Assembly (NCBI GenBank): GCA_964406325.1
Contig: CAYORE010000018.1
Coordinates: forward strand, 1-37,461
Direction: 5' to 3'
DNA length: 37,461 nucleotides
Source of the DNA: an uncultured Bdellovibrionales bacterium
Lineage (GTDB): Bacteria > Patescibacteriota > Minisyncoccia > Moranbacterales > DUUL01
A program made the position numbers and the translations under genes. Shown piece after piece: positions 88 through 18,470 of the stretch. The number at the start of each line of letters is the position of its first letter. The first letter of the stretch is position 1. Under the pieces are notes generated by a model. It was not told the DNA's origin. It did not search any database and saw only the letters and a list, made by a program, of their open reading frames with translations.

Positions 88-2010
88 TTAAACCTCAATA
101 ATCACCGGAATAATCATTGGACGGCGTTGGGTTTTTTGAAAAAGAAAAGTTCCCACTTCTTCCCGAATTCGTTTATTAAGAATCCCCCAATTGATTTTGG
201 TTTTACTGGACTTGGAAGTATTTTTGGCAATAACTTTTTTAACCGTTTCTTTGGTGGCATTAATCAAGTCAAAATTTTCCTTAACATGAACAAATCCTCT
301 GGAAGTTACTTGAACATTCCCGTTTACTTTCTTGGTTTTACTGTCAATAATTACCGTGATCATAAAAATACCATCTTCCGCTAACATTTGCCGATCTCGC
401 AAGACGATATGTTCCACTTCGTTAACTCCCAGTCCGTCAATAAATACATAATCCGTCGGTACTTTTTCCTTAAGAACTTGCGGTTTGTTTTTGTGGATAT
501 TAAAAATATTTCCATTGTCCAAAATAAAAATATTTTTTGCTTTCATCCCGATTTCCAACGCCAACTTGCGAGCTTCTTTGAGAAAATAGTGATAAGCGTA
601 AACGGGGATATAATAATCCGGTTTAACTTGTTTAAGCATTGCTTGAATATCGGAGGCGTTACAGTGTCCACTGACATGAATGTCCATCATATTACTGTGA
701 ATAACATTATCGCATTTACGATAAAGATTATCCTTTAGTCTTTGAATGGTGTTTTCATTGCCGGGAATAACCGAAGAGGAAAAGACAACCGTATCTTTTT
801 TCTTAAGTTTAACAAAGCGATGATTATCCGTAACAATTTTAGATAAAGCGGCATTACTTTCCCCTTGAGCACCGGTACAAAGGATTACCAATTTATCTTC
901 AGGGTAATTGTGGATATGTTTAATATCAATCAGAGCCCGTTTATTGGTTTTAATATAACCGAGTTCTTGGGCTAGCTTGATATTTAATTTCATACTATAA
1001 CCATCCAAGGCCACCTTTTTGCCGAATTTATCCGCTATCTCAATAATATTTTTAATCCGATCAATTTGAGAAGAAAACATTCCAATAATAACCTTACCCT
1101 TAGCTTCGGTGATAATTTTTTCTAAATTGTCATACATAGTTTTTTCGGAAGTGGGACTATTGTGATCGGTTGCCCCCAAACTTTCCAACATTAAGATGGT
1201 GGGGCGGGGCAGTTTCGCCAATTCACTGTAATCCATTGTTCGTTGTCCCCGGTCGTCGCGAGCAACCGTCCAGTCTCCGGGATGTATTACGGTACCGTCC
1301 GGTGTTTCCAAAATAACTCCGACCGCATCCATAATAGAGTGTTCAATTTTAAAGAAACTGACCTTAAAATTTCCGAATTTAAATGTTTGTTTAATATCCT
1401 TGATGTGAGTAGCTTTCAATCTTTTGGCTGATCCTTTCTGGTGGTCTTCCATTCGGTTTTTAATCAGAGCCAAAGTGAAATCTCGCCCAACAACGGGAGG
1501 ATAGTTTAATTGCTCCAAAAGAATGGGGGCGGCCCCAATGTGATCCAAATGTCCGTGGCTAAAAATAACCGCTCGGATACGCTTTTCTTTTCCACGCAGG
1601 TAAGAAATATCGGGAACAATATAATCCACTCCCGGCATATCTTCTTCCGGGAATTGAATACCCATATCCAAAATAACAATATCATTTCCATATTCAAATA
1701 CGGTCATATTTCTTCCAACTTCTTCCTGTCCGCCCAAGGGAATTATTTTTAAGCCCTTGATTTTTGTTAAATCAAGAGAGCTTTTATCTTTTTGTCCCTT
1801 GGTTATTTTTGTAGAAGTTGCTCGTCGCCCTCGTTTCTTTTGATTGGTGTTGCTTTTTCTCGCGGGTCGCTTCTTCTGCTTCTTAACGGTCTCTTTTTCC
1901 AAGTGAGCCGTTCTTTTTTTAAGACTTTTTTGATGAGCTTTCATCTCGTCAATAAGACTGTTTATCGCCGATTTAGGTTCGGCGTATTTCACCTGTCGTT
2001 TTTTAGTCAT
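88..2010 (-). CDS. rnj: Ribonuclease J (metallo-beta-lactamase / beta-CASP fold) with a lysine/arginine-rich N-terminal extension of about 85 aa
   Basis: 640-aa ORF. The core starts LKIIPLGGQEEVGRNMTVFEY. It carries the HGHLDHIGA zinc-binding motif and a typical RNase J C-terminal region. Confidence 0.9.
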   Translation of the reverse strand: MTKKRQVKYAEPKSAINSLIDEMKAHQKSLKKRTAHLEKETVKKQKKRPARKSNTNQKKRGRRATSTKITKGQKDKSSLDLTKIKGLKIIPLGGQEEVGRNMTVFEYGNDIVILDMGIQFPEEDMPGVDYIVPDISYLRGKEKRIRAVIFSHGHLDHIGAAPILLEQLNYPPVVGRDFTLALIKNRMEDHQKGSAKRLKATHIKDIKQTFKFGNFKVSFFKIEHSIMDAVGVILETPDGTVIHPGDWTVARDDRGQRTMDYSELAKLPRPTILMLESLGATDHNSPTSEKTMYDNLEKIITEAKGKVIIGMFSSQIDRIKNIIEIADKFGKKVALDGYSMKLNIKLAQELGYIKTNKRALIDIKHIHNYPEDKLVILCTGAQGESNAALSKIVTDNHRFVKLKKKDTVVFSSSVIPGNENTIQRLKDNLYRKCDNVIHSNMMDIHVSGHCNASDIQAMLKQVKPDYYIPVYAYHYFLKEARKLALEIGMKAKNIFILDNGNIFNIHKNKPQVLKEKVPTDYVFIDGLGVNEVEHIVLRDRQMLAEDGIFMITVIIDSKTKKVNGNVQVTSRGFVHVKENFDLINATKETVKKVIAKNTSKSSKTKINWGILNKRIREEVGTFLFQKTQRRPMIIPVIIEV

Positions 2011-2214
2011 ATTTTTTGATTTACTAATTTTTTAGAAACAACAAAAATAAAAATCATTTTGTCAAATGACCAAATTTCAGTTGTAGTAAAGGAATTAAAA
2101 TAATTCCCTAATAGTTAAAATATTTTTATTTGATACTTTTAGAAATCTTCTGAAAATCGGCGATTGGTACTTGCAGAAAATTTCTAAAAATAATTAAAAG
2201 TATTTATTAATTTA

Positions 2215-3231
2215 TTAAAAAGTGTTTAATTCTTTTTTAAATTCCTCAATCATCGGTACGGCGTTAGGGTCGGTTTGGTAGTGTAGGGCCAAGTAATAAG
2301 ATGTCCAATCAGCCAGGATGATATTGGAAAAAATTTTAAAGAAAATATTTTCCGAAGAGAGATTTATTGCTGAACCGGAAATATTCTTCTCGGCTAAAAA
2401 TTTAGCCGTTAGATCATATCGCTTTAAGTTGCGAGGATCGTCTTCGGGGTCACGAAGCATTATAATAAAATAATCCGTTTGGGGATTGGTAAAACCGATA
2501 AATTCATTATGATTTAACTCGGGAAAAACATTGAAAAAAGCCGGAATTTTGGTATTTTCGTTAAATTTAATCTTCCAAATCATCGCCAAGGAAGAAAAAG
2601 TATTGGAAGAATATATCAAAGGTGTTTTTTGGTGTAATTTTTCGGAAAATTCTTTACCGTTTTTCTCTAACCATTCGGCTTTGTCGTTTAACTTTTGGGC
2701 GGAATCTGTAATTTCAGCGGTTAAATCCGGTAATTTTCGTTCGTTGATTAATATTTGAATGAGTGCAAAGAAGAAATACCCGACAGCCATTCGTGGTTGA
2801 AAATCTTTTGACGGTTTTGGTAGTTTAATATGAGGAACACCGTTCTTCAAGGCCATCTTTTCCACTAATCCTCCACTGGAAATGGCAATTATGTTTAAAT
2901 TATTAACAAGCGCTTCTTGAAAAGAGGAGACGGTTTCCTCAGTATTCCCGGAATAAGAACAAATAATATTTAAACAATCATCAAAAGCTTCCGGAGGTAA
3001 TTTATAGGAACGATTCCGATGAATTCTCATTATAGCATTATTTTTATTTCTTGTCAAGCTTCTTTGATAGGTATCTAAAATTTCTCCCGGTAAAGCGCTT
3101 CCACCCATGCCGGAAATAACAATTTGAGAAAAGTCTTTCACTGACCGAACATTTTCAGCCAATTTTAATCCCTGGGTAAATTGCTCCGGCAAAGACAAGA
3201 TGCTTTGACGAAAATCTGTTTCTGAAGGCAT
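2215..3231 (-). CDS. Bifunctional phosphoglucose/phosphomannose isomerase family protein (SIS domain)
   Basis: 338-aa ORF with the SIS-type GMGGSALPGEIL motif near the N-terminus. Its length and C-terminal part are typical of the PGI/PMI family. Confidence 0.7.
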   Translation of the reverse strand: MPSETDFRQSILSLPEQFTQGLKLAENVRSVKDFSQIVISGMGGSALPGEILDTYQRSLTRNKNNAIMRIHRNRSYKLPPEAFDDCLNIICSYSGNTEETVSSFQEALVNNLNIIAISSGGLVEKMALKNGVPHIKLPKPSKDFQPRMAVGYFFFALIQILINERKLPDLTAEITDSAQKLNDKAEWLEKNGKEFSEKLHQKTPLIYSSNTFSSLAMIWKIKFNENTKIPAFFNVFPELNHNEFIGFTNPQTDYFIIMLRDPEDDPRNLKRYDLTAKFLAEKNISGSAINLSSENIFFKIFSNIILADWTSYYLALHYQTDPNAVPMIEEFKKELNTF

Positions 3232-3241
3232 TTTTAAGATT

Positions 3242-4993
3242 TTATTTTTTAATTCGTTTTGTTTTGATGTACCAGTTGTTGAGGTTGTTTAAGCGACTGC
3301 CGGTTTTAATAATGGCCTTTTCTTCAACCCCTTTTATTTTGCTGTTTAAAACATAGATATACTTTGGACTGTAAAGGAAAATTGCCGGAGAGTCTTTTAA
3401 CAGATGTTTACTTATCTCAATATATTTTTTATTTTCATCAGAAATAGAAGTGGCCTTTTTTGATTCTTCCAATAATTTATCCACATCTTTATTGTCATAA
3501 AGAGTAAAGTTTAATCCCGGATTCTTCTTTCCACTGGAGTGCCAAAAGAAAAATAAATTGGGGTCATTACCGGAATATTGCAGACCTAAGATGAGACTTT
3601 CAAACTTTCGGGGGTTTAGATATTTCTGTCGGATATCCAGCTGGTTGTCGCTGTTAACTATTTCCACCGCTACACCTACTTTTTGCCACTGTTCTTTGAT
3701 TATCTCGGCGGTTTTCAGTAAGTCATCGGTAGAACTTACCACCAATTGCAATTTTAATTCACTGCCTTCTTTAGTGCGAACGGAAGAATTTTTTTCTATA
3801 TTCCAGCCGGCCTTTTCTAAAAGTTTTATAGCTTTCTCCGGCGAATATTCCGTTAATTCACTGTCATAATTAAAATCTTCTTTAATAAAAGGTTTAATCA
3901 AAGGAGAGTATATTTTTTCGGCATAGCCATGAAAAATTTTGTCTATAATTTCGTCACGATTGGTTGCTAAGCGAAGAGCTTGACGCACTCTTTCATCGGC
4001 CAGAGGTACGGAACCGCCCTGGTTTAAAAGAACGGTAAAATATTGGGGGATATTAAGACTGTGCAAGTTGGTGTCTTGACGATTTTGAAAATCACTGATT
4101 TTGTCATATTTAATTAAACCAAACCCGTTAATCTCTTTCTTATTGTAAGCATTAATCACTTCCTCCTGATTGGCGTAAAAGTTAAATATCAGTCTGTTTA
4201 AATATGGTTTTTGCCCGTAATAATTTTTATTGGCAATCAATTTGTAGGAAATAATTTCATCACGATCGTTCTTTTTGATTTCATCAAAAATAAATGGTCC
4301 GGAACCAACCGGATTCAAATTTAATTCAACCAAAGAAAATTTATCACCGGATATTGATGACCAAAGATGTTTTGGTAAAACGCCAAAGGTTAACTTGCTG
4401 AGAAAGGGGGCGTAGGGTTCCGATAATTCAAAGATAACCGTTTGTTCGTCCGGATTGGAAACTTTAATGGTTTCTTTATTCCACTCCTTAATTCCGGAGG
4501 GATTATAATTGGGATCTTGTAATAATTGTACGGTAAAAACGATATCTTCGGCGGTTAGGCGTTCTCCGTCATGCCACAAAACATTATCTTTCAAGTGAAG
4601 AGTGTATTTTTTACCATCGTCGGAGATGTTATAATCCTTAACCAAATCATTTTTTAACTGTCCTTCATTATCATAAGTAAATAAAGCGGAAAAAACCACG
4701 GAAGAAATTAACTCATCTATGGGACGAGCAATGGACAAAATGGGGTTGATATTTTTCGGTGTCCCGGCGGAATTTACCGGAATACCCTCGGTGTATTCTC
4801 CGCCGAAGGCCGGCACAACCTTGGTGGCGGAAAAATAGTACCTGACGGAGCCACCGAGCAACAATAAAACAAATAAAGAAAGAGCTGTATAAAGAGCTAA
4901 TTTTTCTTTCGGTTTTAATATTTTACCGAGATATTTCAGTTTGGTTAGAAAAGATATTTTTGTTGGTTGATCGTTTTTATCATCAGAAGACAT
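3242..4993 (-). CDS. ABC transporter substrate-binding protein, peptide/nickel type (SBP family 5), membrane-anchored
   Basis: 583-aa ORF with an N-terminal hydrophobic anchor (LALYTALSLFVLLLLGG). Length and sequence style fit the family-5 solute-binding fold (LHLKDNVLWHDGERLTAEDIVFT). Confidence 0.75.
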   Translation of the reverse strand: MSSDDKNDQPTKISFLTKLKYLGKILKPKEKLALYTALSLFVLLLLGGSVRYYFSATKVVPAFGGEYTEGIPVNSAGTPKNINPILSIARPIDELISSVVFSALFTYDNEGQLKNDLVKDYNISDDGKKYTLHLKDNVLWHDGERLTAEDIVFTVQLLQDPNYNPSGIKEWNKETIKVSNPDEQTVIFELSEPYAPFLSKLTFGVLPKHLWSSISGDKFSLVELNLNPVGSGPFIFDEIKKNDRDEIISYKLIANKNYYGQKPYLNRLIFNFYANQEEVINAYNKKEINGFGLIKYDKISDFQNRQDTNLHSLNIPQYFTVLLNQGGSVPLADERVRQALRLATNRDEIIDKIFHGYAEKIYSPLIKPFIKEDFNYDSELTEYSPEKAIKLLEKAGWNIEKNSSVRTKEGSELKLQLVVSSTDDLLKTAEIIKEQWQKVGVAVEIVNSDNQLDIRQKYLNPRKFESLILGLQYSGNDPNLFFFWHSSGKKNPGLNFTLYDNKDVDKLLEESKKATSISDENKKYIEISKHLLKDSPAIFLYSPKYIYVLNSKIKGVEEKAIIKTGSRLNNLNNWYIKTKRIKK

Positions 4994-17151: not shown

Positions 17152-17311
17152 ATTTTTATTATTTATAATTTTATTTAGTTTGTGGACAATTAAACAAAGA
17201 ATGTTGACAAGAAATTATCAGACAACAAGAGTTTTGAATAATCGCTTAAAACGGTTTTCGCTACCTGTTTATTCTATCATATTGTAAATATTTTATCAAT
17301 ATTGACAAGGG

Positions 17312-17340
17312 TTGACTTTTGATTAAATCGGGGGTATATT
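17312..17340 (+). promoter_or_regulatory. Sigma70-like promoter upstream of tRNA-Pro
   Basis: TTGACT (17312-17317), a 17-nt spacer, then TATATT (17335-17340), about 65 nt upstream of the mature tRNA 5' end. Confidence 0.5.
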
Positions 17341-17409
17341 TAGTAAAGTGATATTTCAGAACGATTTAATTAAGTTGATTAAATAAGAAATTTTAATATT
17401 TGTCAAAAG

Positions 17410-17482
17410 CGGGGCATGGTGTCAACGGCTAGCACGCACGGTTTGGGACCGTGTAGACTGGGTTCGAATCCCAGTGCCCCGA
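17410..17482 (+). tRNA. tRNA-Pro (anticodon UGG)
   Basis: Manual cloverleaf: acceptor CGGGGCA/TGCCCCG, anticodon arm CACGG-TTTGGGA-CCGTG, T arm CTGGG-TTCGAAT-CCCAG, discriminator A. CCA is not encoded. Confidence 0.9.
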
Positions 17483-17695
17483 CAGGAAGATCACCCGCGC
17501 GGTGATTTTTTATTTTAATTTTTATTTTCTGGCAGAAGGGTACAGTGTGATAGAAAGCACTGGGATTCGAAGGGCGTTAAGAAAAATTCGAGCGAAAAGC
17601 GAGGATTTTTTAGCCCCGGCCCGAAGGGGAATCCCAGTGCCCCGACAGGAAGATCACCCGCGCGGTGATTTTTTTTATTTTAATTTTTATTTTTT
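17466..17695 (+). repeat. Direct repeat of the tRNA-Pro T-loop-to-3'-end plus terminator (17466-17528 and 17629-17695) bracketing a 100-nt GC-rich insert
   Basis: The two copies are identical except for T-run lengths, with an offset of 163 bp. The insert contains a T-arm-like ctgggattcgaa. gcactggga (17557-17565) is complementary to tcccagtgc (17632-17640). Confidence 0.9.
17490..17511 (+). terminator. Intrinsic terminator of tRNA-Pro
   Basis: Stem atcacc/ggtgat (6 bp) with loop cgcgc, followed by a 6-T run. An identical hairpin recurs at 17653-17676. Confidence 0.6.
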
Positions 17696-17784
17696 ATAAA
17701 AACTGACGAATAAAAGAAAGATAAATGAACAAAGGGAAGATAGGTAAATAAAAGAATGAGGGAAAAATAAACAAAAATAACATG

Positions 17785-17854
17785 CACTACCATATTACGA
17801 AATATGGTAGTGGTAAACAAAAATAGCATACTACTATATTTCGTAATATGGTAG
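17785..17854. repeat. Two related palindromes (28 nt and 24 nt) spaced 44 bp centre to centre
   Basis: cactaccatatt-acga-aatatggtagtg (17785-17812) has perfect 12-bp arms. ctactatatt-tcgt-aatatggtag (17831-17854) has 10-bp arms with one T:G position. The central tetranucleotides are reverse complements of each other. Confidence 0.85.
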
Positions 17855-18169
17855 CGTTGATAACATCAGTAATGCCGTAGTAATTGTAGTAGTAGTGATG
17901 GCGTAATTAGTATTAGTATTAGTGAACTTATCTAGGGTTTTTAAAAATAATCAGAATTAATGGTAAAATAAACTAAAAATTTAAACTCCGAAAGAGTATG
18001 CTAAACAGATAGTTTATTAACAGGTTAATTTTACAATTTTGTTTACAGAAAAGTGTTAAAATGTTAAATAACTTTTTATAAAAGTTATTATTGACTATGC
18101 TAATATTTTAGTACCTTTCTGGGGATAATCTTAGATGAGTTAAGTATTAGTATTAGTGGGGAGGAAATA

Positions 18170-18413
18170 TTTTTAATATTTTCCACCAAAAAACCGCCTA
18201 CATCGGTAGCCGGTTTTTTTAATTGTGGTTTGGTGGACGCTAAGGGACTCGCCCTAACGGGCCGGCCCCTCCCCGTGCAAAGCACAAGGGTCCGGGCTTC
18301 GAGTCCCAAGTCCAAAAGCCAAGCAGTTGGCTTTTTAATATTTTCCACCAAAAAACCGCCTACATCGGTAGCCGGTTTTTTTAATTGTTGTTTGGTGGAC
18401 GCTAAGGGACTCG
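18170..18413 (-). repeat. Direct repeat of the tRNA-Val T-loop-to-CCA end plus terminator (18332-18413 and 18170-18251) bracketing an 80-nt GC-rich insert
   Basis: The two 82-bp copies differ at one position, with an offset of 162 bp. The insert carries an 8-bp arm (18300-18307) complementary to 18244-18251. Confidence 0.9.
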
Positions 18414-18470
18414 AACCCCTGACCCCTTCGGTGTAAACGAAGTGCTCTAAACCAACTGAGCTAAGCGTCC
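18393..18470 (-). tRNA. tRNA-Val (anticodon UAC), CCA encoded
   Basis: The reverse complement folds as GGACGCT-TA-GCTC-AGTTGGTTTA-GAGC-A-CTTCG-TTTACAC-CGAAG-GGGTC-AGGGG-TTCGAGT-CCCTT-AGCGTCC-A-CCA. Confidence 0.9.

Follow-up and report, generated by a model that had tools for sequence, protein, structure and literature searches.

RtT-like repeat modules behind the tRNA-Pro and tRNA-Val genes of a patescibacterial contig

Two modules downstream of tRNA genes

We analysed a stretch of 37,461 nucleotides from an uncultured Bdellovibrionales bacterium (GTDB lineage Patescibacteriota, Minisyncoccia, Moranbacterales, DUUL01), contig CAYORE010000018.1 of assembly GCA_964406325.1; this whole stretch is called the window below. 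In it, the gene for tRNA-Pro(TGG) is followed by a 163-bp unit that consists of a 100-nt insert and a second copy of tRNA-Pro from T-loop position G57 through the terminator (Table 1). A module of the same build, which an earlier note made from the letters of this DNA had missed, lies behind tRNA-Val(TAC) on the opposite strand. Both are probably a new variant, invisible to Rfam, of the known RtT-type tRNA-operon repeat.

The earlier note had described the duplication of the tRNA-Pro tail with its terminator, and direct-repeat comparison confirmed it: the copies are offset by 163, and their sole difference is a run of T6 in the first and T8 in the second. The second copy begins where the note had placed it and ends at 17693, 2 nt short of the 17695 given there. 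The G+C content of the insert, put at roughly half by hand count, is 51%, against 24-26% in the adjoining intergenic DNA. The pairing noticed between 17557-17565 and 17632-17640 does exist but is longer than the 9 bp reported, covering 12 bp (17557-17568 with 17629-17640), and the 5' arm also matches the genuine tRNA at 17463-17477 perfectly, in inverted form, over 15 nt. The leader of the insert reads GTGATAGAAAGCAC, against TTGATAGAGGAGCAC at the end of the tRNA-Pro trailer in the relative L314.

The Val repeats, offset by 162, also begin in the T-loop and take in the terminator. The Pro and Val inserts have little sequence in common but follow a common plan: a 5' arm complementary to the 3' strand of the copied tRNA end (together helix P1), the junction GAA, hairpin P2, the junction CGG, and hairpin P3 (CCC-G(N)NA-GGG) directly abutting G57. 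The Pro module is the shorter form, with one continuous 12-bp helix and without the acceptor 5' strand and the hairpin P0. Beyond the five genuine tRNAs, neither ARAGORN nor the Rfam tRNA model (RF00005) called a tRNA in the window, module included, and the module itself gave no Rfam match, whether at gathering level over the window, at E <= 10 around the site or at nine related loci. The earlier note had seen no integrase in the window, and indeed neither integrase nor reverse-transcriptase domains were found in 20 window open reading frames (ORFs) scanned against Pfam, 7 of which had no Pfam match at all. An 83-aa minus-strand ORF with a TTG start (18100-18351) overlaps the Val module, and in the relative L311 one at 92-253 likewise overlaps a module. 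ORFs and called genes that overlap the G+C-rich modules are probably spurious protein calls caused by the modules.

Table 1. Positions of the two host tRNA genes, the direct repeats and the parts of the modules in the window
Feature	Position	Strand	Remarks
tRNA-Pro(TGG), host gene; CCA not encoded	17410-17483	+	ARAGORN; Rfam tRNA 53.8 bits
Pro direct-repeat copy 1	17466-17528 (63 nt)	+	T-loop G57 to tRNA 3' end, intrinsic terminator, AT-rich tail
Intrinsic terminator in Pro copy 1	17485-17511	+	T6 run
Pro module leader	17529-17556	+	by eye, seems like a decayed copy of the tRNA-Pro trailer
Pro P1 5' arm GCACUGGGAUUC and GAA junction	17557-17571	+	
Pro P2 hairpin	17572-17616	+	base GGGC/GCCC
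Pro P2 tip UCGAGCGAAAAGCGAG	17588-17603	+	tandem G.A pairs, 2-bp stem, GAAAA loop; same in E. coli RtT
Pro CGG junction and P3 hairpin CCC-GAA-GGG	17617-17628	+	family-invariant; abuts G57 of the copied tRNA end
Pro direct-repeat copy 2	17629-17693 (65 nt)	+	P1 3' arm (T-loop G57 to 3' end), terminator, tail
Terminator in Pro copy 2	17647-17675	+	T8 run
tRNA-Val(TAC), host gene of the second module; CCA encoded	18393-18470	-	ARAGORN, Rfam
Val direct-repeat copy 1 (proximal)	18332-18413 (82 nt)	-	T-loop to 3' end, terminator, tail
Val module insert (80 nt)	18252-18331	-	65% G+C
Val P0 hairpin GCCAACUGCUUGGC	18331-18318	-	
Val GGAC	18313-18310	-	
Val P1 5' arm GGGACUCG, then AA	18307-18300	-	
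Val P2 hairpin	18297-18265	-	base GCCC/GGGC
Val CGG junction	18264-18262	-	
Val P3 CCCGUUAGGG	18261-18252	-	
Val direct-repeat copy 2 (distal)	18170-18251 (82 nt)	-	P1 3' arm CGAGUCCC..., tRNA 3' end with CCA, terminator, tail

A common structure behind different tRNAs

Genome and metagenome collections were searched with a pattern taken from the 3' junction common to the two window modules. The pattern gave many chance matches in high-GC genomes; in the first scan of genome contigs, made with a G+C-rich 17-nt pattern, only four loci (L054, L078, L119 and L137) were real. In total, about 40 such modules were found, behind genes for tRNA-Ser, Tyr, Arg, Met, Pro and Val. The host tRNA loci are Ser in 13 cases, Arg in two, and Tyr and Met in one each, with Pro and Val in the window. 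Modules with enough flanking sequence lie 86-163 nt behind the tRNA gene, except in the array of L258 and the interrupted locus of L261. Wherever a repeat could be detected, in 20 modules, its first base is G57 without exception. The repeats measure 17 to 82 nt, or 112 nt in the tandem array of L284, where the whole unit is repeated.

A covariance model (R1) was built from 24 modules, all from outside the window. Its only matches in the window are the Pro module (17558-17640, 53.9 bits, E = 2e-12) and the Val module (18239-18311, 34 bits, E = 4.5e-7). In 39 modules aligned to the model, 86.3% of the cells pair, against 78.0% after shuffling and 41-70% when the partners are slid. Cells with a double change number 51, against 16.1 +/- 3.4 in shuffled alignments (none of 500 reached 51), and all of them lie in P1 and P2; a MAFFT alignment gave the same picture of covariation. 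For example, in P2 the window has AUUC-GA-GC...GC-GA-GGAU where L314 has GUCC-GA-AU...AU-GA-GGAC, and in P1 a C-G pair of the window Val module is U-A in L311, following the T-loop base. The earlier note had allowed for an insert of random sequence, lacking compensatory changes and similar modules at any other tRNA; the helices do carry such changes, and other tRNAs do carry modules.

The inner end of P1 alternates between UC/GA Watson-Crick pairs (18 sequences) and GA/GA tandem pairs (6 sequences). Over the paired columns as a whole, cells with G.A (26) far outnumber those with U.C or C.U (4), which argues for selection on the sense strand as a single strand; this single strand is most likely RNA. 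The counts of G.U and A.C in the stems, 11 and 8, do not by themselves settle the strand. Minimum-energy folds of modules that have the acceptor strand and P0 gave an acceptor-like 7-bp stem, P0, a T-stem and the P2/P3 junction, with z-scores of about -3.5 to -3.8; taken together, the folds of this cloverleaf-like shape have z-scores of -3 to -4.5. The complete module is thus predicted to have the shape of a tRNA without the D and anticodon arms and with an expanded T-loop.

The complete members begin with the tRNA's own acceptor 5' strand, followed by P0 and the T-stem 5' strand. P0 is a conserved hairpin (GCCAA-CUGC-UUGGC, with covarying variants) between the acceptor 5' strand and the T-stem arm. 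Of the 32 modules scored, about a dozen have this acceptor strand, 23-26 nt upstream of the arm. The 5' extent differs among modules, from the full acceptor strand with P0 to P0 only or the T-stem arm only. In L212, two tandem modules with common leader and P2 segments point to duplication followed by divergence.

Since the 5' strands are identical to the acceptor and T-stem strands of the tRNA itself, one might take the module for a functionless, decayed tandem duplicate of the tRNA gene, or, as several contigs end inside the repeat, for an error of assembly. Either explanation is extremely improbable: the non-tRNA core (GAA, P2, CGG, P3 and P0) is the same behind unrelated tRNAs in different phyla, neither ARAGORN nor the Rfam tRNA model recognises the module as a tRNA, and independent assemblies of different samples show identical junctions. 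For the window in particular, the junctions of the Pro module recur in three independent JGI assemblies (L004, L005 and L310), and thus the module is not the assembly artefact against which the earlier note had advised a check.

Three loci of the family have an unusual layout. In L258 (7700-9430), at least four module-like units with GGGATTCGAA ... GAATCCCAC ends are arranged like a cassette array, with two small ORFs interspersed and no tRNA gene detected within 9.5 kb. L054 (Bacillota metagenome-assembled genome JAUNBC010000010, minus strand, 0-360) has two near-identical modules 136 nt apart, which end in differing tRNA-type 3' arms (GAATCCCATACGCGTCACCA and GAATCCCTCGTCGGAGCG) and are adjoined by a masked run of N. 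In L261 (minus strand, about 1690-3930), a 2.3-kb insertion splits the P0 hairpin of a tRNA-Ser module and encodes a fragment of a large zinc-ribbon protein resembling serine recombinases and a 405-aa beta-propeller protein. We considered whether this 2.3-kb stretch is a full-length parent element and rejected the idea; it is an unrelated insertion into the P0 hairpin.

Strain variation and the origin of the repeats

The number of units differs between strains of one species. Over about 8 kb, strain L001 (ENA ERZ27262694) shares 99.7-99.9% identity with the window, yet it precisely lacks both modules, retaining one copy of each repeat; the earlier note had proposed an alignment with close relatives, and in this strain each module is indeed absent as a unit. 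The single Pro repeat of this empty-site strain matches copy 2 of the window. At least one unit is present in the window, L005 and L310 (the contigs of L005 and L310 end inside or just after the unit), and in L004 the sequence passes from the Pro module into a second unit. The species therefore has 0, 1 or at least 2 units depending on the strain. A further contig, L002 (JGI 3300039273), is 99% identical to the window until the end of tRNA-Pro, with T in place of C at one position of the acceptor 3' strand (GTGCTCCGA), and is entirely different downstream (window 17484 onward, upstream of the gene for an MBL-fold protein). This divergence may be another rearrangement or an integration at the tRNA-Pro end.

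By the source names of homologues of the neighbouring protein, the organism is a Moranbacteria-like member of the Patescibacteria. Two more distant relatives, whose neighbouring MBL-fold proteins are 64% (L314) and 78% (L311) identical to that of the window, were examined. L314 has a homologous module behind tRNA-Pro; L311 has one behind tRNA-Val and a Pro-type module beside a tRNA-Pro gene, which the contig end cuts. The Pro repeats in these relatives cover each lineage's own version of the terminator, and L311 has a 19-nt internal duplication in both repeat copies. As both copies of a repeat share lineage-specific changes, they evolve in concert, and so the near-identity of the repeats in the window is no proof of a recent insertion. 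Since diverged relatives have kept orthologous modules behind these same tRNAs, the empty sites of L001 are most simply losses mediated by the repeats. Direct repeats of this kind recombine or slip, which gives copy-number variation, tandem duplication with later divergence, and concerted evolution.

The repeats could alternatively be attL and attR, the attachment sites of a tyrosine-integrase element whose interior has been deleted, that is, an island scar or a miniature element mobilised in trans like a CIME (cis-mobilizable element), which was the first suggestion of the earlier note. Blocks of identity that run from the T-loop past the tRNA end do look like att sites, and the complete divergence of L002 right after tRNA-Pro suggests that the tRNA end may also be a recombination site. 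The direct repeats of the tRNA 3' part (63/65 nt and 82 nt) do flank inserts, but the 'foreign' DNA between them is a conserved structured module, with covarying single-strand structure common to several phyla and to E. coli RtT, and orthologous modules stand behind the same tRNAs in relatives. Moreover, the junction is exactly G57 every time, beside an invariant hairpin; the window ORFs scanned contain no integrase domain; and no protein family recurs near the modules in an all-against-all BLAST of the ORFs around 25 other module loci. Two scans of viral contigs gave chance matches only and no module, so that no link to phage att sites was seen. We therefore consider an integrase origin very unlikely, and our search of the literature on tRNA-linked miniature integrative elements returned nothing relevant. 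The last alternative offered by the earlier note, a tRNA-derived hairpin RNA with its own function, comes closest: the feature is probably an RtT-type element.

Another explanation is a non-autonomous selfish element that enters tRNA genes at T-loop position 57 and duplicates the target in doing so, for example by target-primed copying of a tRNA-like RNA whose 3' arm is paired with the nicked tRNA gene. Such an element would give a precise 3' junction, target duplications of variable length and variable 5' extents. In the family, the repeat start is fixed at G57 and the length varies from 17 to 82 nt, often including the local, lineage-specific trailer and terminator, and the 5' extent of the module is variable. 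The arms fit at least six tRNA identities in several phyla, no protein gene accompanies the module, and two different modules are both missing from the 99.8%-identical strain L001. However, no reverse transcriptase or nuclease is associated with the modules (window Pfam scans; 25 loci), the orthologous modules at the same tRNAs of diverged relatives make repeat-mediated loss the simpler account of L001, concerted evolution deprives repeat identity of its value as evidence of recent insertion, and the tandem modules of L212 are diverged duplicates rather than independent insertions. On balance we think such an element unlikely.

Wider still is the proposal that RtT and these modules make up one ancient, multi-phylum family of tRNA mimics that has no protein gene and propagates by RNA-templated or target-duplicating insertion at T-loop position 57. 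The tRNA-identical 3' arm would then find the target, and the family would be a bacterial analogue of the tRNA-derived SINEs (short interspersed nuclear elements). We hold this proposal, including the analogy, to be quite doubtful; if true, it would also account for the tyrT repeats of E. coli, which have lacked an explanation since 1978.

Several other identities were tried and rejected. A MITE (miniature inverted-repeat transposable element) or a transposon of the insertion-sequence (IS) type would account for the 12-bp inverted arms, but one arm lies within the direct repeat, and the repeat length is not fixed (17-82 nt, or the 112-nt unit in L284). For ribozymes (hammerhead, twister, pistol and hepatitis delta virus (HDV)-like, judged by their cores) and for integron attC or CTX-type single-stranded DNA hairpins, we found neither a motif nor Rfam support.

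Some other features of the region were recorded. Two palindromic hairpins with 12-bp stems (CACTACCATATT-ACGA-AATATGGTAGTG at 17785-17812, the other near 17830-17854) together form a 25-nt, 96% inverted repeat; strain L001 has this sequence too, and the Rfam matches there are weak and sub-threshold only (mir-3912 and BTnc201). The spacer that separates the Pro and Val modules contains two identical 16-nt stretches in direct orientation, AGTATTAGTATTAGTG, at 17909-17924 and 18143-18158, 234 nt apart. The gene for ribosomal protein L19 (18720-19301, minus strand) encodes a Lys/Glu-rich C-terminal extension of about 75 aa (...KEENKEENKEENKEEKEKK).

Nature of the modules and comparison with known RNAs

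The 178-bp repeat of the E. coli tyrT operon (rttR, RtT) was reportedly described by Egan and Landy in 1978 and by Rossi et al. in 1981. We know of no accepted function or origin of the tyrT/RtT repeats in more than 40 years, and of no protein partner. For RtT, roles in mimicking uncharged tRNA, in modulating the stringent response and in tRNA processing have been proposed.

It was through weak Rfam sX4 matches at module loci that we came to the E. coli tyrT operon. The RtT unit of K-12 (L309, tyrT-tyrV) reads GGGGAAGGAU-GAGAA ... UCGAGCGAAAGCGAGA ... (G)CCCGAAGGG; after about 20 more nt comes AAUCCUUCCCCCACCACCA, identical to the final 19 nt of tRNA-Tyr. The model R1 aligns three of the four E. 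coli RtT units end to end (17-20 bits, E = 0.003-0.014). The window has a single occurrence of the motif TCGAGCGAAA(N)GCGAG, within P2, against none in 100 shuffles; of 315 loci, only those of the same species and E. coli RtT unit 1 have it. Among 5,426 E. coli genomes, the tyrT locus has 0, 1, 2, 3, 4 or 6 annotated RtT units. Some complete genomes of E. coli have a single tRNA-Tyr gene at this locus. The places matching RtT number a median of 3 and up to 14 per genome, so that RtT-like units stand at other loci too. In mobilome data for E. coli, coverage is raised over the tyrT/rttR region (bioRxiv 10.1101/2024.07.17.603846).

We favour, with a probability of about 0.65, the view that both features of the window are modules of the RtT type of tRNA-operon repeat, small, structured and without a protein gene. 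The module would be transcribed with the tRNA or just after it; in the window, transcription would pass the internal terminator, whose T run (T6) is the shorter. Such an RNA would then fold into a tRNA mimic and, because the 3' end of the module is the tRNA's own, would be trimmed by the enzymes of tRNA maturation into a stable small RNA. In E. coli, the 171-nt rtT RNA is reported to be a stable RNA processed from the tRNA-operon transcript (Bosl and Kersten 1991, cited in PMC3318445; bioRxiv 10.1101/2024.07.17.603846). By analogy with this RNA, we infer that transcription, folding and processing probably occur in the window organism as well; that its modules mimic uncharged tRNA or act in the stringent response would be speculation.

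Several points weigh against the RtT-type view or limit it. RF00391, the Rfam model of RtT, which scores the E. coli units at 133-138 bits, has no match in the window at the gathering threshold (45 bits), none at E <= 10 over 17300-18000, and none at nine other module loci at E <= 1. The modules of the window are thus not members of the Rfam RtT family as currently defined; they are a divergent variant of the same kind of element. The link to RtT suggested by these comparisons draws on a common layout, short motifs and marginal R1 scores (17-20 bits), and in RtT about 20 additional nt separate CCCGAAGGG from the tRNA copy, a segment missing after P3 in the window modules. P3 never varies among the modules, in part since the search pattern required it, and therefore adds no evidence of covariation. 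With an intrinsic terminator on either side and neither acceptor 5' strand nor P0, the Pro module may be a truncated or inert copy. The copied 3' arm is not always intact: L311 and L314 have a 3-nt deletion confined to the module copy of the repeat, and the arm is truncated in the L251 module and in the Val module of L311. Such damage speaks against strict selection for a tRNA-like 3' end. Finally, the model leaves the origin of the first copy at a new tRNA unaccounted for.

Elements built like RtT thus occur far outside the enterobacteria, in bacteria of the candidate phyla radiation (CPR), in Firmicutes-type metagenome-assembled genomes and in many metagenome contigs. Their common core (P1, GAA, P2, CGG and CCC(GNA)GGG), often extended to a tRNA-like cloverleaf, is missed by the current Rfam model. 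The modules provide a comparative data set for the structure and the function of the RNA and for the question of how a module gains the 3' end of the adjoining tRNA. In practice, such units break assemblies, yield spurious ORF calls behind tRNA genes and can pass for integration scars.

Among known systems, the T-loop class of tyrosine-integrase att sites and the CIMEs likewise have direct repeats running from the T-loop over the tRNA 3' end, and presence or absence varies between strains. Unlike these, the elements of the window are 80-100 nt long, have a covarying fold and no integrase, and are kept at the same tRNA in relatives, and their E. coli relative, RtT, is a processed RNA. The tRNA-like domain of tmRNA, the YrlA Y-RNA module and mascRNA also have an acceptor-like helix stacked on a T-stem-like helix and a tRNA-like 3' end; in our modules, by contrast, the T-loop is replaced by a three-way junction and the arms are copied from the neighbouring tRNA gene. 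None of these families gave a gathering-level Rfam match in the window, and the sole weak match, to mascRNA-menRNA (18 bits, threshold 42.5), covers the genuine tRNA-Pro, not the module.

In the consensus of sX4 (RF02223), a tRNA-Ser leads into an arm, GGGGGGUGAGA, which pairs with the T-stem and the acceptor 3' strand of the tRNA. The consensus thus joins a tRNA to the beginning of such a module. The family model ends part-way through the module; it scores weakly, at 24-34 bits, on module loci (threshold 70) and has no match in the window. sX4 has been described only as an orphan small RNA, and in Xanthomonas it runs at 280-300 nt on Northern blots (PMC3300014).

The closest comparison is RtT itself. 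It differs from the window modules in several respects: its tRNA copy starts at A58 instead of G57, its P2 region is another and it has no P0 hairpin, its host gene is that of tRNA-Tyr rather than those of tRNA-Pro and tRNA-Val in Patescibacteria (CPR), and in the window the repeat takes in the whole terminator. The hairpin UCGAGCGAAAGCGAG and CCCGAAGGG are common to RtT and the window; the Val module has CCCGUUAGGG, without the UCGAGCG hairpin. Neither element has a known protein partner. Both lie directly downstream of a tRNA gene on its strand, and in both a 5' arm pairs with the copy of the tRNA end and is followed by a (GA/UC)GAA junction. Furthermore, both occur in tandem with a copy number that varies between strains (0-6 for E. 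coli RtT; 0, 1 or at least 2 in the window species), and the units of both end with a copy of the last 17-19 nt of the tRNA, which starts in the T-loop.

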